Shown here: piece after piece, positions 6,867 to 64,000 of the stretch
How the letters are laid out: each line of letters begins with the position of its first letter
How positions within the stretch are numbered: the first letter of the stretch is position 1
Assembly: GCA_963924565.1 (NCBI GenBank)
Contig: OZ004609.1
Span: 27,714,001-27,778,000, forward strand
Source of the DNA: Ascidiella aspersa
Taxonomy: Eukaryota
Reading direction: 5' to 3'
DNA: 64,000 bases
Translations under genes and position numbers: made by a program
Notes under the pieces: generated by a model
Seen by the model: only the letters and a program-made list of their open reading frames with translations
What the model was told of the DNA's origin: nothing
The model's database searches: none

Positions 6867-9800
6867 TCTTCTTCTTCTTTCGTGAGTCAAACACGGAGCT
6901 CTGTTGACGAGAGCCATTTCAGAGTGTCATTATCGAGGTCTCTGAGGCCTCGTTCCCCATGGGGTGGGCGGTAGGTGGTACATTCCTCCACGATGTGGTC
7001 CGCAGTTTGGTGGTGGGCGCAACATATGCAAGCCGGATTGTGGGTCAAGCCCCACTTCAGCATCGACGCTCCGAAACAGCCGACGCCAGTACGGAGGCGG
7101 TTAAGATTAACCCATTGTCGCTGTGGAAGGTCCAGGCCTTTTACTTCATAAGGGCTGTCTGTAAAGCGATGTAATCTTGTTTGTGGAGCTGCTGACCACC
7201 TCTCCGTCCACCGGTTCTTTACCCAGGTGTCCTTGGACATGCCATCTCTGACGACCTGTAACATTGTCTTTGCCTCGATTTTAGGCGCTGACGGAGAGTC
7301 TTCTCTGTGACAACGTTGTGCAGTAGATGTTCTTCGGTGCAGAGCGCTTTTCTACAGAGGGCTAGGGTCGCTGCCTCTCGGCGAATGTCAAGCGGTGGTA
7401 TGCCAGCCAGCACTGGCAGCTGCTCGGTTGGCGTGGCACGTAGGCAGCCAGATATGACGCGCAACGCACTATTAAGGGTAGTGTACACCTTCTTGGCGTG
7501 ACTACCTCGGCACCACACAGGGGCACAATACTCAGCGGCGGGTAGAACCAGAGCCTGGTCAGATATACGCAACACTTTAGTTGAAGCTTCCCATGTAGTA
7601 CCGGTTAGGCGGCGTATGAGCGCGATGCGAGCGGCTGCCTTCGCCCTGACGCTGTCGACGTGATGCTTGAACGTCAGCGTTCTGTCAAGCTTGACCCCGA
7701 GGTATGTGGGAGTAGCATTATGCTGCAACAATGTGTTGTTGACGCGGATGTTTGTATTACGCTTGGCTTCCCTGTTATTTAGGTGAAACATTGTGGCCAT
7801 AGTTTTCCCCATGCTTAATTTTAGTCTTCAGTTTTTGAAGTAAGATGACAGGATCCCCAGGTATGCGGTGAGACCTTCTTCGGCTTCGTCCCATGTTGGC
7901 TTGCTGAGTAGAATTGCAAGGTCATAGCCATATTTCTTCGACTGGGTGGCGGGTAAGTCGTGGATATATATGTTAAATAACATAGGGGCAAGGACGTAAC
8001 ATTGCGGTACGCCATTCCTCAGCTTTCGAGTCCTACTACACTGGCCGTCACTTGTGTGGAGCTGAAAGCTACGGTGGCTAAGCATGTCTAAGATGAAGTT
8101 CACCATGTGCATATCTGGGATCATCTCCAGAAGCTTTAGGTGAAGACCACGTAACCAAACGGAGTCATACGCAGCCGTGAGGTCGATGAACACGGCTCCG
8201 ACTTTTTCACCAGCCTCAAACCCATTCTCTATATCTTGGCACAGTAGGGTAACCTGGTCTGTGGTAGATCTGCCACTGCGGAAACCCGCTTGCTCCTTGG
8301 GCAATTGTGGATCGATAATTGGATTTAGGCGCGTGTGGACAAGTCGCTCCAACATCTTGTAAGGCACACACAGTAGCGATATAGGGCGATAGCTCTTCGG
8401 GTCGTCTTTTGGTTTGTTTGGCTTCGGTAAAGCTATAGCCTTTGCCCGACGCCAGATCTTGGGTAACGTGCCAGTTCAAAGACAGGTCGAAAAGAAAGAG
8501 GTTAGCCATGAGGACATTTTCCTTCCTTGGTGTTTTATAAACTCAGGATGGATTCCATCGATGCCTGGTGATTTGCCCACTTTAAGTTGTTTGGTGGCTT
8601 CCGCAAGTTCTTCAACGGTGAAGTCAATTGAAAGGTTGGAGTTACAGGTTGGGGACGTACGAATTTCTTTGATCTTGGCTTTGATGCTTCTGCTGAATGG
8701 CCTGTCTACATTAGGGCAAAGTTGGGCGGCAATCGCATTGGCCGTGATGGGGCATTAACTGGTTTTTGCCGACCTTTCAGTTAGCCTGTTGACTGTTTGC
8801 CAAGCTCTACGACTGGAATGAGTAAAGTCTATTGACTTCACTGTTTCAGTCCATCTCTCCCTTCGTTGGTCGTTTATTCTGCGGATGAGATCATCGGCGG
8901 CCCTTTCTCGCTCATGGATGGATTCCGTCTCATTTTGTGTGCGAAGTAAGTGCTCGCATACTTTGTCCCAGCAAGGAACGTAGTTGCTACGAAAGCCGCG
9001 GGAAATGTTATTCTTCGCAGCAGAAGTTATAGCCTTGCAGAAGGCGCTATAAGCGCAGTTGATGTAGACTGAGTTCGGGGACGGCAAGCCAACAGCTACT
9101 GCATCGAGCTGTTGCCTGAATCTTTTCCAGTTAGCTTTGCGGAAATTCCAACGCCTTACGGGATTCTCTTCGATAAGCTGAACTAACGCTGGGGTTAAAA
9201 TCAGCGATGGACGATGGTGAGAATGGGGGAATATATCCAGGACGCGCCTCTCCGGCATTAGCTCACCGGCGCAGCTCTTAAAAAAAGCCAGGTCGGGATT
9301 GGTGTCGGTGTTCCAGCGTGCGGAGTGGAATGTGGGTTGCTCTTTGGGATTGAAAAGTAGAGTGGCGTCAATGGATGAAGCCTATTCGATAAGGGTATCG
9401 CCGTCTGCATTGGTTACGCTGTAACCCCAGTCAGTGTGATGGCAGTTAAAGTCGCCGGATTAGTGCGCTGGTGCGGTGACATCTGGAAGTGAGTCGAGAT
9501 ACAGTCTGCTGGGTGGTGGCTTGTAGATGTTGACGATGGTAGTGTCTTGTACCTTGGTTGTCAGCCACTCCACAGTTGTGTTGTCGTCAGACTGCGTTAT
9601 CGCTGACCAAGGTTTTCCATTCCTGATAAAGGTTGCGATGCAATGCTGCTTGTTTAGTGTGAATCCGGCCAGGTTGAAACCCAGTATCTTCAGGACGCTA
9701 TAGAGTTGGTAACATGCGTTTCCTGCAGGGAAATTATCGCAACTTTGTTGTTGTTGGCGATATGTGCAATGACGCTGAGTTTGGCTGCTGTAAGCGCCTC

Positions 9801-49600: not shown

Positions 49601-51610
49601 CACGAGTTCATTTTCCATATTTTTTGGCTAGTTCAACTAAATAAGAGCAACATTTTTTTATGCTTTACACCCATCTTGTTCCTGCAAAGAGTGTAACATG
49701 TAGTTGGACCCCTTTTTAATTACAAAATACCCTAGGTTTACCTCTGATTAACGGTCGTGGCAGATGTTATAATAAGATGCGTAAAGTCTACAAAATTAAA
49801 ATTAAACGGTTCGAGGCCTTTTTGAGTTTGGCTTTGGCCTGGGACAAGAAAAAGGCTGCCCACCCCTGCTCTATATAAATATTGCATATATATTTGTTCT
49901 GCAGTTAAATGTAATCAGACAAAATTATGTCAACAGCTATACTTAAAATTTGTGTTTTCATTCAATGTTAGGTTGGGAAGAAAACAATTACAATTTGGCA
50001 ACTCTTTTTCACTGTTATGCTGTCCTAATAACACTTCTCACACTAGCTTGCTACAAACTTGTTTTTGATACGCACATGTTTGGCCAGGGAAAAATTGTAT
50101 AATTATATTTGTTGTGTAAGTTCTCAGCAGTGGCTAATTAATGAAATTATCATAGGATGTTTTCATTTTTTGACATGCGTGGCTATTTCATTTGTTTTAA
50201 TGCTAGTTAAGATACCCTAATACTAGTACTTCTGATAAATAGAAACTGTTCTGACGTTGAATAGAATTAATTGATTTACTTAAATATGGAATAGGCTTAC
50301 TTTGGCATAAATATAATGCTCTTTGTTTTTTCATCTTCCTCAAAATGAACTGCTTCATGCATGTTTACTTTGGATTGGTTGAAATTGCCAGCGGCAATAA
50401 CTTCCTGCAATAATAATATTTGCTTTATGGTATGGATAACACAAACTGCAGATGCAGACAGATGTTAACCTCATATAAGTGAAGGTTTCATCAGACATTG
50501 TGTTAAATACCTAATATATAAAAGGAAAAACAACTAGAAAAAATGTATGTAGGATTCAAAACCTAAACAAAAACTATAACCAACATCTACCACAACTACA
50601 AAATTAGCTACTAAAATCTAATCAAATATTTATATTTAATATTTTAGTTGCATTGACTAAAATATTACTTTATCAGCTGGGTCTTCTAAAATTCCAACAT
50701 TTTTTCCAGCATGTTGAAGAAACTGCTCTCGGAATCGTGGATCTTTCGGATTGAATAGATCCACATTCTTATCAAACTGGGCTAAATGTGAGCGCTCCCC
50801 TTGCAGCATTGCTTTTGCTAACTACAAAATATTTGTTTATCTTAATGACTCATGTGATGTTTTGAACATATTTAATTGTTAAAAGCTAAGTAATTTTGAC
50901 AGCAAATGGAAAAAGTTAAACACTACAGTATGTTGCCAGCAATATAAATGAAACAAGTCGAAAAACAAAATGTTATAAATACATGGACATTTTGTTTAAT
51001 AAGTATAGTTAAACTGCTTGTAAATGTATTGAATTTACATTTAGCATATCAATTTTTGTTGCTATGAATAAATCTAATATTCCGACCAAATATTAAGTTT
51101 TTTAATAACATATTTTTTAAGAAAAATGCCATGTTAAAACCACATCTAAAATATATTACTTGATCATGTTTAATTTTTTGAATTTCGCGGATTCTTCTCA
51201 TTTCCTCTTCTTCTAATAAATTTGGGTTGGACTGCAGTGCAATTAAAGCCTTAAGAAACACCAAAATTTTTAGTTCATTCAGTGACATAAGAAATCAATA
51301 TACAGTAGTAGGGTATGTACTGTGTAAATTGATTTAATTGCTGACACAGGAAAAATCAAACTAATATATATTTAATGTTCAGCTTTAAACAAATAATTAT
51401 TTTTAGTAATAACATTAGTGGGTCGAGAAAATATTACTAAATAAGGCATCTATACAAATTTAAGCACTGAATAATTTATTTGGTAAAAACTAATTTGAAG
51501 AACAGCTTTACCTGTATAAAGAGAAAAAACATCATAATATAAAGACAAAATTTCCATCTTCGAGCCAATCGTTTTAAACTTCTAAGCAGAAACATCTTGG
51601 CAAGATGCAT
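34643..51610 (-). CDS. XYLT: Xylosyltransferase (protein O-xylosyltransferase, GT14), ~884 aa, 15 coding exons
   Basis: Exons 51512-51610, 51160-51249, 50669-50821, 50301-50404, 49355-49483, 48852-49052, 48464-48659, 46749-46829, 45200-45269, 43890-43992, 41889-42027, 41409-41531, 37265-37498, 35836-35964 and 34643-35446 (2655 nt, in frame). Type II TM near the N-terminus. Motifs: [83 protein letters not shown]. Confidence 0.96.
39613..39866. mobile_element. hAT MITE in an XYLT intron
   Basis: AGTGTTTCTTAA ... TTAAGAAGCACTG; TSD TATTACAT/TATTAAAT; repeated GGGTGAA motifs. Confidence 0.75.
47961..48014. repeat. Perfect 17-bp inverted repeat with a 20-nt loop
   Basis: CTTTGTCCACTGCCGCT / AGCGGCAGTGGACAAAG. 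Confidence 0.85.
49526..49868. mobile_element. hAT MITE related to 25741-26467
   Basis: CAGGGGTG ... CACCCCTG; TSD CACTATAT/CTCTATAT; shared internal CACGAGTTCATT. Confidence 0.8.
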
Positions 51611-54269
51611 GTTGTACTGTTTTTGTTCCAAACTACTCCATTGTGTTGTTTTCAAATAGTTTTAATCAAATTTGAAAGTCACAATTTAGGCTAACAATCT
51701 AAAACATGTAAAATTTATCATAAATATGTTCTGGAAAATTTGTATGATCATGAACAAATAACAATGTGACATGGTAACAAATCTAGTTATGGTAAAAACT
51801 AATGTATATTTTAATTGATGTAACCTAAACGTAAATCTCTGCTAGGTGAAAAGGTTTTTTGGTGCTGGTCTAGAATCCTACCACATTTTTGGGCGCTGGT
51901 CTTCAATCTTACCCCTGTTTTTTTTCACAATGAAACCAACTGTCAAAAATGAATGAAACAAATTGTCAAAAATGAAATTGCAAGGGAGAAATAAATATGG
52001 CAGATTCAATATAATAATAATACTTAAACCACCAAAACTTGCACCCAAAATAATGCTAGAAATATATTTAACACCCCCTTCTCCCCAAAAAATCAAATGG
52101 ACTCATTACTAGGGCGCACTTTTTGAACGTTAGTTCATCCAGTCACAACTCCTTACTTTAGATTTCCAATTTATCTCAGCCTGGTGTAAAATTGAATAAT
52201 TTCAACCTTTTCTTCTGCCGTTTTGCCAGCGGCTTTAACTAATCAACGCACCGACCACAAGCAATACAGTGCAGTGTTTTGTAAATAAATCTCAGAAGAC
52301 ATGTGTCAAGAACCAATTAATATCTGGACCTAACCGCCTAACTTTTAAGTTATGCTATTAAGTAAAAGTAAAGGGCTTTAAAAAACAATGTGTGGCTAAG
52401 GTTTCCTTGAAACACTATACGCATCTTATTGTAAAGCAAAGTGCGTAAAACCACCGTCTTTTTATTTTTAAGGTAAATGCATTACAGTTTGACTGACTGA
52501 TTACATTGCAAACCGTATGTTACTTAAACCAACGTAAAGTTCGCTGTTAACCACAACGCTACGTGATCGTAATCCCTTTAAACTTCAACAGCCGACAGTC
52601 AACGCGTTTCCTGATGTCTAGTTCACTAGTTATGAACAAACTGTACTGCTGAGTTGACATAGAATGCTTACCATTTATCTAATCGCGCCAAACGAGAGGC
52701 GTAGCGCGACTGCAAAATTTATTTTTAGATGGGAAAGTTAATATCCAAATAAAAATTAAAATCGTTGAACTCAGAAAAAAAAACTTTTACAACATTGTTT
52801 AACTAATTACGAAAAGATTAAACATATTACTAATATTTTGTTATTTTTGGTGTGCTATTTGTAGGGTTGCGTGCAAAAATATACTTTTACACATTTAAAT
52901 TAGGTTTTTAGGATCGGCACTGTTTAACCAACGCCTAGTTAAATAATACAGGCGTTGGTTTAACCATAGAGCACTAATACTAGAGGCGACAGTCGTAAAT
53001 ATCGGCAGATCGGTCACGCTTGGATGAACCGGGTAAGATTCGACCTTTTCCAACACCCGATCCGACTCGTTTAGGTCGCTTCAAGCCGTCTTATAATTTC
53101 ACTTCTTCGGCCTTAAAGCAGTCCCGTGGATGTCCACTGACCCACTGGTGGGTAAACTTGCCTGCTTTATGCCAACAGCTTATTCCACTCGGTTCATAGC
53201 ACTCACGAATCTTCGTGAATGTGATTTACTGGCAAGCGGCTATAGAGAAACGCAATATTTTGCTTTTTTATTACACAAAGGTAACGATTTCACCCGAGAA
53301 TGATGCAAAGATGAACTACTTAAGTAATAACGAATAAAAACAGCAAAAATATATTTAGTTTACGAATAACTAGGAAATACGAAAATGTAGAATTTTTAAT
53401 ATTTTTTTTTAAAACTTATACTCTCGTATAAGGGGACTCCCCATTGTAGCGACCGTAACACTAAAAAATTTCAATTCAGCTTAAAAAGTTGTCTTTCTGT
53501 CAGCACGGTTTTAAAAATTATGAAAAAAGGCAAAAAGTAATTACCTGATCAGTTAACATTTCCTGTCAGCTATGTTTTAGTCATGATAAAGTGTATTATA
53601 TTCGGCCCTGAGGGTGTCATGTAGCCTGCAGAGCCACTGCCTGTACAAGTAGCTTTCCCTGTTATTGCATTGCAGCAATAATATATTGTTGAAAATGTTA
53701 GGCGCAATCTAACCTATAGAAGATGGTTGCTTACTAGTCTTTACTACCGTTTTGGACAGCCTAACGTATAGTAAAGGGCTTTGTTACTCAAATAACGCTA
53801 TACCTGCAGAACGAGTCTGTGACCCGACTACCGCTAACATTCGGTCACATTTTTATTAGTATTTAACTGTTTTCACTAGTCTGGACCTATCACTTATCAA
53901 GAAACACAGCCGTTTAAGCAATCATTTTTTGTGGCTTGTCTAGTTGCCCAGGTCTAAACATGTAGCGAGCCAACATATTTGTAATTATAACTTGTGCGCT
54001 GTGCGTAAATAGACCAAATCTTAGTTTAAAACTGTCCTGGCATATTTCGTTTTCCCCCGAACCAAAGTCAGCAACTGACTAGCTTACCCGCCATCGCCCT
54101 TGTCCCGTATGGAAAATATGACAGATTTTGATGAAATCTTGCGATTGCACTGCCAGAAAATTTGGGATGACCTGATGCAACTAAGGTCAAAACTGCACCC
54201 GCCAATATAATTTGTTGAAAAACTGCTATTATGCTATTATATTCATTTTCAAGGGTTGAAGGTCTAGTC

Positions 54270-54832
54270 CATTGTTTCTTAACCTTTTGACTTGGTGGCA
54301 CACCTAAAGACGTATGAAAACGTGGCGGCGCACCTTGTGAGCGAAGCGAGCGAGAATTTTTTTAGGTGTACCCGGTATTTCTCTTACTGCAATTTTTCAA
54401 ATATTGTTTAATAGTTGCATATCTTTAAAGGGACTCCAGTGTTTAAGACTGAAAACGTTATTTTGTCCATTTAAGTCTTATTCCGATTAATTTTGGACTT
54501 ATTTTGACATGTTTAGGTCTTATCTAGACTATTTTAGATCTTATTCTGTCGTGGTTATTACTGCGAATATGGCGTTATTTTTTCGGTGGTCTTAATAGGC
54601 CAACTATGAAAGCCTGTTATAGATTAATTATATGATTTAGATATTGCTGCTTTGTAGGCTTATTGAGTTTTCCACTTGAAAGCCTTGTGAAGTCAATGAG
54701 CTAAGTTAATTGGAAAGTAAAAAATATGTTTTATATAATAGGACCTACATTATTTTTTCTTTTTGTTTGCGGCGCACCTGGCAGCCTTCCATGGCGCACC
54801 AGTGCGCCGGGCGCACCGGTTGAGAAACGCTG
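54270..54832. mobile_element. hAT MITE
   Basis: CATTGTTTCTTAACC ... GGTTGAGAAACGCTG; perfect TSD GTCTAGTC; GGCGCACC subterminal motifs; carries decayed TAGGTCTTATT repeats. Confidence 0.85.
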
Positions 54833-55801
54833 GTCTAGTCTGTTAAAAATAATTGTGGGTGCACTTGTCATACTTTCCATGATGGACTCTTGTGCTATAA
54901 TATAGTTTAACACAGCTACTGGAAATACACCCAACCATACACAACAATCATATTGCAATACTTGCGAGACATGTTCTTGCTGCACTGTGAACTGTATTTA
55001 TTAAAAGCAGAGCTATGCTGAATTTTTTTAATTTACATATTTTCAATAACCTGACTATCGCTACACTGACAATATGCACTTTAAAACACTGAGGCAGTTT
55101 CTTCAGTTTTGATCTTTTTTGTGTTGGCTCATGGACTGCCTCCTTAAACGACTCTTGATAACTATCACATTCACTGTAATGTGTTTTAAAAAATGGTGTG
55201 CTTAGGAGTATTTTTTTACTTTTGCTCATTGTAGCATCATAGTGCCACCGTGCTATACATCCCCCAAAATCTATACTGCATTAAACTGTTTATGCCCCAA
55301 ATGCTGTGCATACTATCGTATGTTGAGCTGTGTGACTTATAAATGCTACAAAGTAAATTTTTATTAAATGAAACTATAAACTTTTTGCACTAAACGTCTA
55401 ATTGTTAGTATTAAGTGTTTTATGACAAAAACTCTGTGATATAATTCGCTTCATGTGCTGGGCCTTTAAAAGCTCTTGAAAGAGCATTTTGGGCAGCGAC
55501 AAAAAAGTTTGTAGGCCACTGCTTAAAGAACATTGTACCCAAGTTGGAAAGTTTGCCTTATCTTATGCAGTTGCACTTTGTGCATTTTATGGAAATTTAC
55601 TGTGGAATCAGATTAACTCCACAATCACAATATAAAACCCCTAGTACAGTTTTCAGTTGAACTTTATCTAAACTAGACAAATTGCATTTGTAAGGTTATT
55701 ACAGCCTATTCTGTTCTCCAGGACAGGTGCACACCCAAATTAGTAAATTATAGAAAAAGATTTAGTTGTGATTGGATTCCAAACTATAATAAACATTAAA
55801 C

Positions 55802-56301
55802 CAGGGGTGTCCAACTCAAACATGCCGGAGTGCCAATTTTTATCTTATAACTTCTTCCCGTGCCAAAGTATCGTAACCGAACCAATTCTTTTTAATCATA
55901 AAAGCGTTTTTTTACCAATAATCAGAATGTTTATTTAAACTTGAAAAATAACTATCTAGTAGAAAGGCGCAGCCCTACATCAAAGTGTCTCTCGGTGAGC
56001 TGACTTTTGTTTCTTTACACCAAGCTATATAATATATGTGAATGCTAGCCTCCACACAGTATAATGTTACTATATCAAAAGTAATTGTTGGTTGTCGTGA
56101 TTGCCGCGATTGTTTTATATTGTGAACAAACAATGGCAATTGGTTGTATAACAAACTTAATATTTTCTGAAAATTGGCTCTATAACAAATTGAGCTTTTT
56201 TGTCAATTGGCTAAATAACAATTTTAGTGTTTTTTGGGCAGGGCTTGCGTGTTTTTTTATTAGGTCGCGTGCCAAATGTGGCACCTTGTTGGACACCCCT
56301 G
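55802..56301. mobile_element. hAT MITE (500 bp)
   Basis: TIR CAGGGGTGTCCAAC / GTTGGACACCCCTG; perfect TSD CATTAAAC. Confidence 0.92.
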
Positions 56302-57074
56302 CATTAAACCTTGGCCCAACTGAAAATTTGATGCCACTCACCTGAGGTCTTGACCAAATGTGCCATGAAATGCTGACTGAAAACAACACATTTAACGGTT
56401 ACTAATACTATTTTACCTTGCCAATCCTGTCTTCGACATGTAACTTGGTATCATTACAATTTTATTTTAATCACATGTGATAACTATGCAGTGCAAAGCG
56501 ATTTAGTAGAGTCAGAGCTTTATTATTCATGATATACTTTTAAAAAGGCAATACAGCAATCAACCGCAAAACTATTTGCTAACATTTATATTAATATCAT
56601 GAAATTAAAACAAATATTCAACATTATAAACAACTGACATTTCAAAAAGTTGTATAAATTGTAGACCATAACTACCAACAAAAAATATCATAACAGAAAC
56701 ACCTGGTTGTTGCCCAAACTTAATTTTTTGTTTATTTAATGAGTGCGGTGCAGCAAAATGAGCTCTTTACAAAGGGGGGGGGGGGGAACTGTTGTATTGT
56801 ATTTAAGTTTTGCTACAACTGATCTGGTTAATCAGCTGAATATGATGCTGAAAATAACATGTTACTATTTGCCATTAATATCTTATTATCACTGGGTAAA
56901 TACACTGTAAAGTAACCTTTGTTAACCTCGAGTAACCCCACATAAATATTATTATTAGGCGAAGGTTAACAGCAAATAATTAGAAAAACGCTGGTGTCGC
57001 AGTACATGGCTACCTTTATAGCAAGTACAGTAATTGTTTCGCCACTGCTACAGACCTTTATTCAAACTTGCCAC

Positions 57075-57510
57075 TTGCGTATGTACAATTAGGAGCAACT
57101 CTTTGCACTCCAAGCTCAACCTATACTTCAAGCTAAAAACTATATTGGTTCCAACCATCAAATACAGCAAAATTAGATACAATATAAGCTTAAAGATTCT
57201 CTATTAAATATTGAATATCCCTATGTTTAACCCACTCTTCAGCTAAGCATAATGGGTGCAACAAATTCAGTCTGCAATTTCATTAATATTTTTAATTGCG
57301 TATGTACAATTGAGGCAATTCTTTGCTGTAAAACTTGAACTATATTGGTTTGAACATCCAAAACAGAGAAATTAGATGCAATATAAATTTGGATTTGAAT
57401 CTTAAGACCCTTTATTAAATATTAAATATCCCTATGTTTAACCAACTGTTTAGATAATCGTAATAGGTGCAACAAATGTCCATCAACAATTTCATTAATA
57501 TTTTAATTAC
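57075..57510. repeat. Diverged ~220-bp tandem duplication
   Basis: TTGCGTATGTACAATT...AACTATATTGGTT...AATATCCCTATGTTTAACC...GGTGCAACAAAT...CAATTTCATTAATATT occurs twice, head to tail. Confidence 0.85.
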
Positions 57511-59452
57511 TTTTTGATAAACTGTCCAATACAAATCAGTTATTTTTTCGGGTTTACAAATCTCTTTAATGCATAGGTGATATTTTAGTTATATCTAAAT
57601 AACAAACAGCTATGAAAATGACTCAGAAAAACAAGACTCTTGTTATTTTAGAAAAATGTTGTTGGAAATATCTCTTATTGCAAGACAGAATCACAATTAG
57701 GTTTAATGTTACTTTATACCACTGGATTCTAAATAAAAAATTATATGTAATTTTTTGTACTGACATTATTTGAGACTACTAAATTATTTTCCCTGGATTT
57801 TTACACATTATCAGCAAAGATGTACAGTGTAATTTATACTTATGTCTTATCGATAGATAACTTTTAAGTATTTCAACCAGCACTTCTGCTAAACTATATA
57901 TTGCCCTTCAAACTTCATGAGCATTTTAAGGCATTTTGCTAATAAAGTGTATCTGTACTGGTACAACATTCTCGATTACTAGATAATATTGGTATTTTGG
58001 AGTTCTAACAACCTGTTTATATTTGTGTCATTAATTGGAAAATACCAATCAAATTTTAACTACACTTCTGTTTTAATTTTTACATATTTTTAATAAACAA
58101 ATCCTATTAGAATGTTGACTAAAAAAACAACATGACTAGGCATTTGTTTAAAGAATTGCTTTGCCTGTATTAAAATTGGGGTTTGAAGGAATAGATTTAA
58201 ACAAAAAAATCAGCTTCTAGACATTTTGTTAGATAACAGGAATCCTAGTTCCTTTTTTCAGCTTTAGGAAAAATTACTTACAAATTGGTCACTTGCTTAA
58301 ATCCTATAGATGACATGTGGAACAGTTTAACATTAGTTTTTTAATCAGGATTGTTTTTCTTTAATTTGTTTTTTAGAATTCAGCAATAGTCTATCAAAAT
58401 GTAAAGTTGCTTTTCTCTGAAGAACTGATACCAAATGATAAACATGATATTATTATGCTACATGTTATGATAAACCAGATGAGATGAATATTGAGGATAC
58501 ATCATTGTAAAATAATTGATCAATCAATACAAACAGGTGTTTAAAATTAAAATGACTAAGTTTCATATTTCATAAAACTGTGGATTTCAGTGTTGAAATT
58601 ATAATGCCTAAAATAAAGCTAATGATGTTTTCTAACTACCTATTCTGTTTATATATTTGCATATACATTCAATGGGTATCTTACAATCCTACAGTTTGTT
58701 GTAACTTAGTAATGTTAAGAGGGATTTTGCTACCAATAGCACTTTCACTATTTCTTTTTCAGTTTTAGTCAGATATTGACGTTAAAGTTTGCCCACCATA
58801 TACTTTAATATTTACTGCCAGATAATAACAACTTCTGTATATATGTATGTACAGAGCAACTTGAGGGATTCCAATGTCAGCTTAACAAAGACAACCAATT
58901 TCAAGTTAAGCACAACACGCTTTCTCGCAAACTAATGTTGCTTGATTAAAGATTTATTCAAGCGTTTCAAGAATGCTACATAGTTCTCTATGGGCTTTGA
59001 TTTTGTTTAAGCCAACTACAACCTCTAGTTTGTGTTCCAAGCTCGTAGACTAATTTGTTAAAAAACTAATATGTTTCAAAAAAGGAATAATTTGTCACTC
59101 GCATTACAAGTGCATGTATGTTTAGTTTATGCGTTTATTTTTGTACATTATTTTTCATTTTTGCTACATGACGTTAATTAATTAATATTTTCAATAGTGC
59201 ATGATGTTTTTAAGGGGTTAAATAGCAATTGTACGAATTCGTCAACGGTTTGTTAAGTTGAACAAAGCTTAACTACCACTTATTTACCCAAATTGACATC
59301 CCTATTCCAACCCTTAACCTAACCCTTAATAATTTTATAAACAAACAGATCAGTGCCCAATCTTCCCATTGCTCTCTAAGCTAAATATTTTGATGTTTTG
59401 ATTTCAACGTAAGGGTATTTTGGTTGGCCACGGTCTACTCCGTCTTTGGATT

Positions 59453-62400
59453 ATATTTAGGCTTCATAAAAACTCTTTTTATTGCTATTTTTGGGCTAAT
59501 GGTGCTTGTTCTTGCTTTTCTATTACGCTGTGGAATAAGCTTAACTGCCATATGTATTTCTTCTTCGATTTGTGTCTCTTACTCACTAATTGGCTCACAC
59601 TTTTGTTAAGAATTGCAACTTTCTCATTGACAATTTAGAACAAACTACTATGCCATGTAAAAAGTATCTGTTTTGTGTTGCTTTTGGGTGATATTGTTTA
59701 TTTTTTTCCGTATTAATCTGTTTTGTAACGTTCTACTCTGAAACGGTTATCAATTTGGGGCGGCCTTCATTTTAAACGTCATTTTGAATATGCTTCCGTG
59801 TAAAAAAACAAATACTTTTCAAGTTATTCACTAACTTGATCGATTAATATTGTCATAAATCGTCATCTCTTGTCGTATAACGTGCCAAGAGTAAAATTTG
59901 ATTGTGCTTAATAATATGAAATAAAGAAAACAGTTGTTAATGAAAGGCGATTTTAATGCTGTTAACAAGTCATTTAGAAATGTAGTCCCAGTCAAATCAA
60001 GAAAACCATTACGTGGTAAATAACGTGGTATTACAAAAAAATATTTCAAGAATGTTCTTAAATAAAAAAGTCTGGTATTTTTGACTAAAACGCTAAAATG
60101 TCAAGTCTTCAAAAACTAAAACTTGAGTGCATTTTATCATAGGAATACAATGTTGAGGAAAATACAGCTGTTGTGTTATGTAGTAATCAAGTGACCTTGC
60201 GGGCAACAATTAAGTTTTGCGAGCCAAGTTTAAAAACGACTTGGATAACTTATTGTTATCTAATATACTTTTAAGAAAAGCAAAGAATTTAGTGTAAAGC
60301 AGGTTTAGTTACGTTATTTTGAAATAGAAGGTAAAAATGTAACAAATCACATGTTTTTTTCCGCTTTTGTGTAACGTGCACGACGGAAAAATTTTATCTA
60401 TCTGCATCTATGCTTATTCCTTACATATTTGTGTTGGTGTTTTACCAATTTTTATTAAGAATGGTTTAATCTTGCTTTAAAATAAATCCGTCGTATGCTT
60501 GGTCAGCTGTGTTGTAGTGTTTCAGTGCAGACGACGTTTAATACGCCCTCGCAAATTGTACAAACGACCTTGTTATTGCGGTGAATTCTATCGCAACCTT
60601 GCGGATTACATAATTCTGTGATTTTGTCAATTTATATAAAATGTTTAAATCGAATTTTATGCCTAAGCCTCGACAGATATAATTAAGACAGATGTACAAC
60701 GTGCTAAAATATCAAAATTTTTATCGATTAGGCCTAAATTTTACCTCAGTAAATATTGTAAGGTTTTATAACAACAGGAACCTAAAATGCATAGCTCTGC
60801 TGTATTACTTGGGTTATCTCGACATTTTTTTTAAATAAGATAATCTTAGTGGTACAACAGTGAGAAAAATGATTGAGATGAACTTTCACAAGAGATACAA
60901 ACATTTTGAGACCGAGATAAACACTTAATTAGTATTAACGTATTTGAAAATCGACGCATTATTTTTATGATCAAAATATAGATTCCGAGCTTTCCAAAGG
61001 AAATGAGTCAAACACGAAATCTGTATTTTGATCGCGAAGTTACTAAGTCGATATCAAAACTTATATTCCGATCAGTGTCGATCTTGAAATGTCCATCAAG
61101 TTTCTGAAGTAAATAAGTCAAACACGAAATCTGTATTTCGATTATGAAGTTAATAGGTGGATATCGAAGCTTATATTCCGATCAGTGTCGATCTTGAAAT
61201 ATCCATCTACTTTCCAAAGGAAATGAGTCAAACACGAAATCTGTATTTTGATCGCGAAGTTACTAAGTCGATATCAAAACTTATATTCCGATCAGTGTCG
61301 ATCTTGAAATGTCCATCAAGTTTCTGAAGTAAATAAGTCAAACACGAAATCTGTATTTCGATTATGAAGTTAATAGGTGGATATCGAAGCTTATATTCCG
61401 ATCAGTGTCGATCTTGAAATATCCATCTACTTTCCAAAGGAAATGAGTCAAACACGAAATCTGTATTTCGATTATGAAGTTAATAGGTGGATATCGAAGC
61501 TTATATTCCGATCAGTGTCGATCTTGAAATATCCATCTACTTTCCAAAGGAAATGAGTCAAACACGAAATCTGTATTTCGATTATGAAGTTAATAGGTGG
61601 ATATCGAAGCTTATATTCCGATCAGTGTCGATCTTGAAATATCCATCAAGTTTCTGAAGTAAATAAGTCAAACACGAAATCTGTATTTCGATTATGAAGT
61701 TAATAGGTGGATATCGAAGCTTATATTCCGATCAGTGTCGATCTTGAAATATCCATCTACTTTCCAAAGGAAATGAGTCAAACACGAAATCTGTATTTTG
61801 ATCGCGAAGTTACTAAGTCGATATCAAAACTTATATTCCGATCAGTGTCGATCTTGAAATGTCCATCAAGTTTCTGAAGGAAATAAGTCAAACACGAAAT
61901 CTGTATTTCGATTATGAAGTTAATAGGTGGATATCAAAACTTATATTCCGATCAGTGTCGATCTTGAAATGTTAGTCTCATTTCGGAAGTAAATAAGTCA
62001 AACACGAAATCTGTATTTTGATCGCGAAGTTACTAAGTCGATATCAAAACTTATATTCCGATCAGTGTCGATCTTGAAATGTCCATCTAGTTTCCAAAGG
62101 AAATAAGTCAAACCCGAAATCTGTATTTTGATTGCGAAGTTACTAAGTCGATATCGAAGCTTATATTCCGATTAGTGTCGATCTTGAAATATCCATCTAC
62201 TTTCCAAAGGAAATGAGTCAAACACGAAATCTGTTTTCCGATCAATGTCGATATTGAAATGTTCCTCTCGTTTCGGAAGTAAATGATTTAAACTCGGAAT
62301 CTATATTTCGATCGTGAAAACAATGCGTCGATTTTTAAATGTTTGTCACGTTTGCGAAGTAAATATTCAACCCTTTAATAGTGAATCAAATGAAATGACC

Positions 62401-64000
62401 TTAATTGTTCGGGCCGTTTTTAATGCAATAAACTAAACTTACAATCTGTATCACGATTCAAGAAATGGATATTGAGATTAAAATATTATATGTCCATTGT
62501 AAAGCGAACACGTTAATACTAATTAAGTGTTTATCTCGGTCTCAAAATGTTTGTATCTCTTGTGATAGTTCATCTCAATCATTTTTTCCACTAATGTAAC
62601 ACTTAGATTATCTTATTTAAAAAAAATGTCGAGATAAACCAAGCAATACAGCAGAGCTATACATTTTAGGCTCCTGTTGTTATAAAACCTTACAATATTT
62701 TTTGTTATAAAACGGAACCTTAGAATATTTTTGAGGTAAAATTTAGGCCTAATCGATAAAAACTTCGATATTTTAGGACGTTGTACATCTGTCCTAATTA
62801 TATCTGTTGGAGCTTAGGCATAAAATTCCACTAAAATATTTTATATAAATTGACGAAATCGCAGAATTATGTAATCCGCAAGGTGGCGATAGAATTCACC
62901 GCAATAACAAGGTCGTTTGTACAATTTGCAAAGGCGAATTAAACGTCGTCTGCACTGAAACACCACAACCCAGCTGACCGGATTTGTTTCAAAACAAGAT
63001 TAAACCATTCTTAATAAAAATTGGTAAAACACCAGTGCAAATATCCAAATTAATAGGCATAGATGTAGAGTGATGAAATTTTTCCATCGTGTACGTTAAA
63101 CAAAAGCGGAAAAAATATGTGATATGTTAAATTTTTAACACTATATTTTAAAAGAACGTGACTAAACCTGCTTTACACTGAATTCTTTGCTTTTATTAAA
63201 AGTGAATTAGATAACAATAAGTTATCGAAGTCGTTTTTAAACTTGGCTCGCACAACTTAATTGTTGCCCACAAGGTCACAAGATCACTACACTACACAAC
63301 ATGGAGCTGTTTTTTCCTCAACAATGTATTTCTATGATAAAGTGCACTTAAATTTTAGTTTTTTTGTAATAACACGTTATTTAGTAATATTTTGTAATAA
63401 CACGTTATTTACCACGTAATAGTTTTCTTGATTTAACTAGCACTACATTTCTAAATAACTTGGTAACAGCATTAAAATCGTATTTTATTAACAACTGTTT
63501 TGTTTATTTCATATTATTAGGCACAATCAAATTTTACTCTTGGCTAGTTATACTACGCAGGAGATGACGATTTATGACAATATTAATCGATCAAGTTAAT
63601 GACTACGGTCAAAAGTATTTGTTTTTTTGCACAGAAGCATATTCAAAACAATGTTAAAAAGAAGGCCGCCCTACATTGATAACTGTTTCTTACCATTTCA
63701 GAGTAGAACGTTAAAAACACAGACAAATACGGAAAAAATAAACAATATTACCCAAAAGCAACACAAAACAGATACTTTTTACATGGCATAGTAGTTTGTT
63801 CTAAATTGACGAAAAGAAAGTTGCAATTCTTAACAAAAGTGTGAGCCAATTAGTGAGTAAGAGTCACAAATCTAAGTAGAAAAACATATACCAATGACAG
63901 ATGAGCTTATTATTACACAGCGTAATAGAAAAGCGTAACGAGAATAAGCACCATTAGCGCAAAATAGCAATAAAATAACGTTTTTATGAAACCCAAATGT
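59453..64000. mobile_element. Large foldback element: inverted arms of about 1.5 kb or more around a satellite core; truncated by the window end
   Basis: 59453-60941 is the reverse complement of 62510-64000 with substitutions and small indels. No ORF of 60 aa or more lies in the core. Confidence 0.88.
60990..62360. repeat. 110-bp tandem satellite, 11 full units plus partial units
   Basis: AAAT(G/A)AGTCAAAC(A/C)CGAAATCTGT recurs at 61001, 61111, 61221 ... 62101 and 62211; two unit variants. Confidence 0.97.

Follow-up and report, generated by a model that had tools for sequence, protein, structure and literature searches.

Among foldback transposons, Drosophila FB is a comparator beside Galileo and Tetris. 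For Galileo, repair or conversion between the two TIRs has been proposed, with insertions passed from TIR to TIR (PMC3573991). The KDZ elements are among the least understood groups of DNA transposons, and their full structure is known mainly from fungi, algae and fish. Giant KDZ elements have been described (PMC12477816, PMC9977147, PMC11343200), and Kojima 2025 (PMC12730594) gives Kyakuja a 7-bp TSD and CA..TG ends, and Dileera and Zisupton an 8-bp TSD. In cichlids, the non-autonomous DNA-7_MWCITE50 has a TSD of 7-8 bp and ends tentatively ascribed to Zisupton, and the related centromeric "centroid" has an inverted repeat that encloses satellite-like units, with intermittent homogenisation of paired inverted copies (PMC13652916). 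Further background is found in 10.1101/2022.06.16.496473, PMC9297572 and PMC12810828.

The window analysed here is a stretch of 64,000 bp of Ascidiella aspersa DNA (G000:C3:27714001-27778000, in a genome of 308.6 Mb). At its right end lies a pair of inverted arms around a tandem array, which we take to be the centre of a 17-kb, gene-less, almost wholly palindromic transposon that is present in about 20 near-identical copies, is probably moved in trans by a KDZ transposase and has two arms each of which probably overwrites the other, starting at the tips. A preliminary description of the window had delimited these arms as reverse complements at 59453-60941 and 62510-64000, and this mirror is real: the two stretches align at 83% identity over 1,553 columns with gaps, and the ungapped blocks are 76-96% identical. 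The indels it had assigned to one arm are also there, at ~60041-60110 in the left arm and as duplications at ~62713-62742 and ~63360-63390 in the right, as is the core of 1.57 kb made mostly of 110-bp repeats (60942-62509, or 1,568 bp, with an array of 11.4 copies at ~60990-62242 inside it). The arms themselves, taken to be 1.5 kb long, extend much further. We added the next 30 kb and followed the mirror past the window end. This extension, suggested in the preliminary description, located both termini and the TSD, which is 8 bp long and has one mismatch. The element starts at window position 53054 and ends at G000:C3:27784111, a length of 17,058 bp, of which 6,111 bp lie beyond the window. 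Measured to the inner boundary at 60941/62510, the left arm is ~7.9 kb and the right arm ~7.6 kb long, and in five copies measured the mirrored share of the element length is 88-98%. The termini are CACCCG…CGGGTG, and the end sequence of the family is CACCCGATCC. The features are collected in Table 1.

Table 1. Positions, in the window, of the element and its parts.
Feature	Position	Strand	Remark
Left TSD copy, 8 bp	53046..53053	+	Right copy differs by one base; the family norm is 7 bp
Element within the window	53054..64000	.	Boundaries common to 20 copies that have both ends and lie in unrelated flanking DNA
Terminal ~237 bp, begins CACCCGATCCGACTCG	53054..53290	+	81-89% identical to the ends of three KDZ-transposase loci
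Left arm (long TIR)	53054..60990	+	Compared with the right arm
~348-bp segment, in the window copy confined to the left arm	54458..54804	.	In both arms in 3 copies; in neither arm in 1 copy
Transcribed, apparently non-coding arm segment	58375..59900 (right boundary approximate)	+	RNA depth 19-48, one orientation
Inner fifth of the full left arm, where divergence is highest	59453..60941	+	Self-alignment
Inner linker, mirror of 62290-62340	60942..60990	+	60990/60991 is the subfamily deletion junction with the right-arm array
110-bp tandem array, 11.4 units, the right arm's inner domain	60991..62242	.	Repeat analysis and copy comparison
~166 bp confined to the right arm	62341..62506	.	Arm alignment
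Right arm, inner part; runs past the window to the right terminus	62290..64000	-	Self-alignment

The innermost 55 bp of the arms as first delimited are indeed identical. This run is neither the longest, which is one of 59 bp at 59690, nor the true inner end, which lies deeper: 60942-60992 mirrors 62290-62340, and in most copies the mirror goes on through a second, inverted array. In 2,000 shuffles, identical runs of at least 55 bp occurred somewhere in 27% and at the very end in 0.1%. We rejected a special meaning for these bases, as the run is unexceptional as a longest run.

The element has relatives dispersed over the genome. With a 641-bp probe from the arm we obtained 43 genome matches, either left-type (97-100%) or right-type (83-85%) and mostly in facing pairs, and the terminal 19-mer had 52 exact occurrences, including 17 head-to-head pairs, against 0 for its reversed control. 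We followed 21 loci to their expected ends and found both termini at 20 and a single terminus at one. The 20 two-ended copies lie on 9 contigs; they are 13.1-24.5 kb long, mostly 16.3-17.9 kb, and sum to 357 kb, about 0.12% of the genome. Between copies, identity is about 97-99.9%, and three copies on C4 are 99.7-99.9% identical to the window copy. The TSD is a perfect 7 bp in 16 of the 20 and a perfect 8 bp in one; together with the window copy this makes 18 copies with a TSD, and two have none. The earlier reading of the structure as a long-TIR, non-autonomous foldback element with tandem repeats is thus borne out by many copies with TSDs, where a single copy lacking a TSD would have spoken against it. 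A different sample assigned to the same species gave raw DNA reads at a depth of ~195 over the arm and 6.4 over unique flank, a ratio of ~30x that corresponds to some 15 copies with two arms in each haploid genome. A contig from another sequencing run starts exactly at 53054. A P-like element, hit in its 5' portion, is the landing site of the window copy.

Although the preliminary description had called the element unclassified, its ends link it to KDZ transposases. Three loci (C9:13999019, C5:15.49-15.51 Mb and C5:7038661) share the element's end and carry CxC-KDZ transposase exons, and the identifiable transposases in loci that start with this end are KDZ in all three cases. Profile matches over the cut-off were obtained for CxC2 (1.7e-7) and CxC1 (7e-7), pieces of the KDZ exon gave 0.002-0.012, and KDZ (PF18758) was matched over the cut-off at the C9 and C5 loci. 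The nearest KDZ proteins are those of Ciona, at 70-79% across one exon; relatives of the Ciona CxC1/2-KDZ protein, all unnamed, occur in Clavelina, amphioxus, fish and molluscs, and the look-alikes among protein clusters (Atlas) are CxC2-KDZ clusters. Against the KDZ reading stands the fact that the similarity to the three loci is confined to the terminal ~237 bp plus common small repeats. This terminal stretch is likely the transposase-recognition region. The C5 KDZ-coding element has the same end on both sides, arms of ~1.1 kb and inverted 26-bp arrays flanking the gene; it is built on the same plan as the palindrome, with a gene in the middle.

A sister end, CACCCGATTCG, with 60 exact matches, defines a second family, which we denote family B. 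Five of its copies are palindromes of 8.7-11.4 kb, four of them with a central 192-bp array, and a 7-bp TSD was found in 6 of 8 end-pairs. The first 1.9 kb of family B is ~95% identical to the left end of a KDZ-coding element at C2:7181504, and a hybrid with one end of each family (A-end/B-end) lies at C4:3.33 Mb.

The element itself has no match to the KDZ transposase (PF18758) over its 17 kb apart from one weak match (E=0.024), as is expected of a non-autonomous member. Among the loci with orphan ends we found no intact KDZ transposase with the element's end, only degenerate KDZ genes; all three KDZ loci with the element's end have suffered truncation or interruption, and stops are present in the two most complete KDZ genes, which have other ends. 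Because every KDZ gene examined is degenerate, the source of the active enzyme is not among them. It is nevertheless likely that the mobiliser is a KDZ transposase of Kyakuja/Dileera type acting in trans. As in Kyakuja, a 7-bp TSD is combined with 5'-CA..TG-3' ends in 16 of 20 copies (CACCCG..CGGGTG); the absence of TIRs described for the fungal Kyakuja families is not seen here, where the TIRs are ~8 kb long and those of the C5 relative ~1.1 kb. The 8-bp TSD of Zisupton and Dileera occurs in 2 of 20 copies. By TSD, therefore, Kyakuja is the best fit.

We found no stop-free frame of more than 110 aa in 50000-64000 and no Pfam match for five short frames of the element and two of its flanks. 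When the transcribed segment was aligned across six versions, it had frame-breaking indels and no conserved frame, and on these three counts we rejected a coding cargo. A structured RNA was rejected as well, Rfam having returned a single sub-threshold match (E=0.24). Polinton/Maverick elements carry polB and integrase genes and have a 6-bp TSD; this candidate was rejected because the part of the element in the window has no long frames and the TSD is 7 bp. In one RNA run, depth over 58403-59846 was 19-48 in one orientation, against ~1-6 in the remaining arm bins that are free of nested repeats; five molecule ends fall at 58375, and the arm reads carry both left-type and right-type variants. 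This pattern likely reflects a non-coding transcript that runs inward, from tip to centre, in both arms and fades before the centre. The preliminary description had proposed that the arms could yield more than 1 kb of dsRNA or extrude a cruciform. The former finds no support, as that RNA run had reads in a single orientation over 57681-60900 and none in the opposite one. On general grounds we consider a cruciform unlikely, given that the inner arms are 87-90% alike, contain indels and are separated by a ~1.3-kb loop. In single-stranded DNA the outer arms could plausibly pair.

Comparison of the copies clarifies what lies at the centre. Fifteen of 20 annotated cores have inverted arrays on either side of a unique spacer of ~200-235 bp, and in two-array copies the left array has 5-17 units and the right array 3-11. 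The left array and the spacer are absent from four of the 20 cores, the window copy included, and the right array from one. The four copies without the left array, among them the window copy, form a young subfamily in which the ~235-bp spacer has been lost as well. The 110-bp array is the inner domain of each arm and not an enclosed passenger. The preliminary suggestion that the element carries or amplifies a satellite therefore holds as to the array, which is present; amplification outside the element is unsupported, since all 150 listed of 196 genome-wide repeat matches lie in copies or older relatives and none is a free satellite array. In older relatives, 80-90% diverged, the inverted centre with short arrays is already present; two of these relatives are apparently one-armed, and one at C6:16.72 Mb retains parts of both arms. 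CGAT words number 35 per kb in the array and ~3 in the arms, and the word also occurs in the terminus; that they are binding sites would be a guess from sequence.

To compare the arms of different copies we aligned 34 of them, after dropping 4 of the 38 for large insertions or deletions. Indels had been described as increasing outward, but over the whole arm divergence declines toward the tips, where it is 1-2%, compared with 10-13% in the inner part. Left-versus-right identity is 0.98-0.99 in the outer 2.5 kb, 0.97-0.98 at 2.5-5 kb and 0.87-0.90 at 5.5-7.5 kb, whereas left-left and right-right identity across copies is 0.98-0.995 along the whole arm. From this difference it follows that the inner divergence predates the burst and that the outer arms have been levelled. 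Variants exclusive to the two arms of one copy numbered 20 in 15 own pairs (1.33 per pair); in a control of 273 cross-copy pairs there were 8 such variants (0.029 per pair), so the excess in own pairs is ~46x. All 20 are located within 5.4 kb of the tip, whereas 53 of 170 same-side doubletons lie farther in. The 20 variants come from only four copies and hence reflect few events. In the copy at C3:6981135 the left arm is right-type over ~5.5 kb from the tip, with 10 both-arm private variants, and copies differ as to whether the 348-bp segment occurs in both arms, in a single arm or in neither. In family B the gradient is weak, from 0.97-0.99 dropping to about 0.87-0.96. The pattern of private variants points to tip-anchored conversion between arms, and it is likely that sequence is copied over from one arm of the element to the other, beginning at the tips and advancing toward the centre.

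These observations can be accommodated in the following model. A KDZ-family element would have gained its symmetry by taking the same end for both sides, and would have lost its gene, leaving the ~235-bp spacer. A CxC-KDZ transposase would bind the common terminal ~240 bp and move the entire palindrome. The starting lesion would be a break at one end or close to it, for which a transposase cut or an aborted excision is the simplest source. After resection toward the centre the opposite arm would serve as the repair template, and such end repair would homogenise the outer ~5 kb while the inner ~3 kb keeps its old divergence of 10-13%. Slippage or unequal exchange may alter the number of array units. 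Deletions at the centre, which make the hairpin shorter, would recur, and one of them may have founded the young subfamily of the window copy.

We weighed this model against three alternatives, of which the one that would dismiss the element altogether, namely that it is a one-off inverted duplication, a segmental duplication or a misassembly, has practically no probability left. Long inverted repeats are hard to assemble and we saw no spanning long read, yet fixed left/right differences recur across the 20 two-ended copies, and the dispersal of these copies over 9 contigs in unrelated flanks, 18 of them with their own TSDs, together with the ~30-fold read depth in another sample and the contig from another run that begins at 53054, leads us to reject both misassembly and one-off duplication. 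A more serious candidate is a foldback of Galileo type that depends on a transposase of the P superfamily (THAP). Galileo has a 7-bp TSD (sometimes 8) and long TIRs with tandem repeats, and a copy of 9 kb with two TIRs and no gene is on record (PMC4168063); a TSD of 7-8 bp with CA..TG ends is compatible with it too. The genome has 51 PF21787 (P) matches, some in intact open frames of 800 aa, and the window copy lies inside a P-like element. That host is only where one copy landed, however, and none of the 8 of 51 P loci examined (two families) matches the element by BLAST. The main P family has different ends (CACTGATCTC…) and an 8-bp TSD, and the transposases identifiable behind the element's end are all three KDZ. 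We therefore regard mobilisation by a P transposase as very unlikely.

A composite origin, in which two diverged KDZ-derived elements lay tail-to-tail and came to move as one, is somewhat less improbable, though still unlikely. On this account the inner divergence of 10-13% would be older than the palindrome, and conversion would have merged only the outer parts. The existence of relatives diverged by 80-90%, two of them seemingly with one arm, would fit such a history, as would the A-end/B-end hybrid, but the old relatives already have inverted arrays around a centre, the one at C6:16.72 Mb has both arms in part, and family B and the C5 KDZ-coding element share the symmetric layout. A composite origin would in any case alter only how the palindrome arose, and not its mobilisation or the conversion between its arms.

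If a gene-less palindrome moved by a KDZ transposase is the correct reading, the family supplies an animal CxC-KDZ lineage with well-delimited ends, with a 7-bp TSD and with candidate partner genes. It would also mean that a near-perfect palindrome of ~17 kb can transpose as a unit, with arms that exceed any we found in the literature searched. That search, whose scope lay outside Repbase, Dfam and most subscription papers, returned no description of this family or of a palindromic KDZ element of such size. The ~20 replicate palindromes with marked arms constitute a natural experiment on the tract length and polarity of conversion, and it is plausible that element copies serve as sites of rearrangement. 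More tentatively, and with more doubt than confidence, one could propose that animal Kyakuja-type KDZ transposases routinely create and move palindromes of 9-17 kb, made by duplication of one end, that every round of cutting is followed by tip-first repair from the other arm, a form of concerted evolution by which the ends stay matched, that the two families here arose in this way in parallel, and that the same class may underlie the inverted, satellite-bearing elements with 7-bp TSDs at cichlid centromeres.

Among known systems, the structural traits of foldback elements are all found here: very long TIRs, internal tandem repeats, a variable centre, non-coding sequence and dispersal with a TSD. 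The long TIRs, internal tandem repeats and gene-less two-TIR copies are shared with Galileo (PMC4168063, PMC3573991) and Tetris (PMC4079207), and a TSD of 7-8 bp with Galileo. The longest Galileo is a single copy of 9,021 bp with TIRs of 4.2/4.7 kb, whereas here there are ~20 copies with arms of ~8 kb; conversion between TIRs was proposed for Galileo, whereas here a tip-to-centre gradient has been measured. Tetris has free satellite arrays (PMC4079207), and none was found for this element among the matches listed. With Kyakuja KDZ elements the element shares CA..TG ends and a 7-bp TSD (PMC12730594), but the fungal Kyakuja are described without TIRs. As in other KDZ elements (PMC12730594, PMC12477816, PMC9977147), we find CxC1/2 together with KDZ in relatives, a size above 10 kb, nested insertions and a case for mobilisation in trans. 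The giant KDZ elements of Ectocarpus (PMC12477816) and Chlamydomonas (PMC9977147) owe their size to cargo genes and nested elements, whereas this one is mirrored and gene-less, and its host is an animal, in contrast to those two and to the fungal hosts of Kyakuja. The likeness to the cichlid DNA-7_MWCITE50 and centroid (PMC13652916) is one of described features, and the centroid sits in a centromeric satellite context, whereas the copies here are dispersed, one of them inside another transposon. Galileo is moved by a transposase of a different superfamily (P) from the KDZ to which this element is tied; the element thus behaves like a foldback but is tied to KDZ, not to P.

Palindromes of family B, a sister of the family to which the 17-kb element belongs (family A) with an end of its own, span 8.7-11.4 kb; most have a 192-bp array at their centre and are flanked by a 7-bp TSD. 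Mini versions of 1.4 and 2 kb are also found, and the end itself has 60 exact matches in the assembly (G000; contigs C1-C9). Five of these ends recur at a spacing of exactly 5,125 bp in a tandem array of 5.1-kb units (G000:C4:13742440-13762958). A third end type builds a palindromic element of ~610 bp, which we found nested in family B ends at a depth of about 200 bp. The same end type stands ahead of the fullest KDZ gene (C5:15.33 Mb), and a 108-bp array comes after that gene.

Miniature derivatives that consist of nothing but the ends also occur. The family A copy at C1:1346102 (L068:1-4660; L-numbers denote stretches of sequence read) contains a nested 6.4-kb insertion with a weak match to Transposase_21 (CACTA/EnSpm-like), and insertions of 4-10 kb are present in other copies as well. 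A 22.6-kb copy (G000:C7:25489460-25512049) has mismatched flanks and no TSD, and is possibly a recombinant of two insertions. At C4:3.33 Mb (L056:6983-7583), a hybrid element combines one A-type end with one B-type end, and is 73% identical over 600 bp to the transcribed arm segment of the 17-kb element.

Features and their locations
Feature	Location	Strand	Remarks
Family B copies	G000 C2:28619853, C4:18170667, C5:1965390, C6:8034037, C8:25589713 and others		
Third end type	L102:754-1362; L096:3034		CACCCGATCCGT
Miniature derivative, 503 bp	L066:2862-3364		ends only
Miniature derivative, 161 bp	L058:9325-9485		ends only
Non-LTR retrotransposon-like frames	window 6890-9798	-	
Young P-element family	G000 C2:17.16 Mb, C6:20.20 Mb, C1:16.39 Mb, C2:6.84 Mb and others		
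P-like element	L033:6113-8398		immediately right of 17-kb element; open frame and PF21787 match

Elsewhere in the window, the non-LTR-like frames resemble an endonuclease and a reverse transcriptase. Two related 21-bp minisatellites (23868-24131 and 54470-54545) are both part of a common dispersed repeat, the latter lying within the left-only segment of the left arm. A sequencing run labelled as a different organism (X4) contained 59% of the sampled words and covered both arm and flank; the label may be at fault, or the run may derive from a relative.

The assembly encodes a young family of P-elements, about 6-6.7 kb in size, with 800-aa open frames, 8-bp TSDs and 97-99% identity. Only a few bases separate the 17-kb element from a downstream frame that opens with an ATG; this frame gave no Pfam match, but we take it to resemble a THAP domain. 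An exon of a P-type transposase (PF21787, 1.4e-5) comes next, and the 5' end of this P-like element is split by the insertion.
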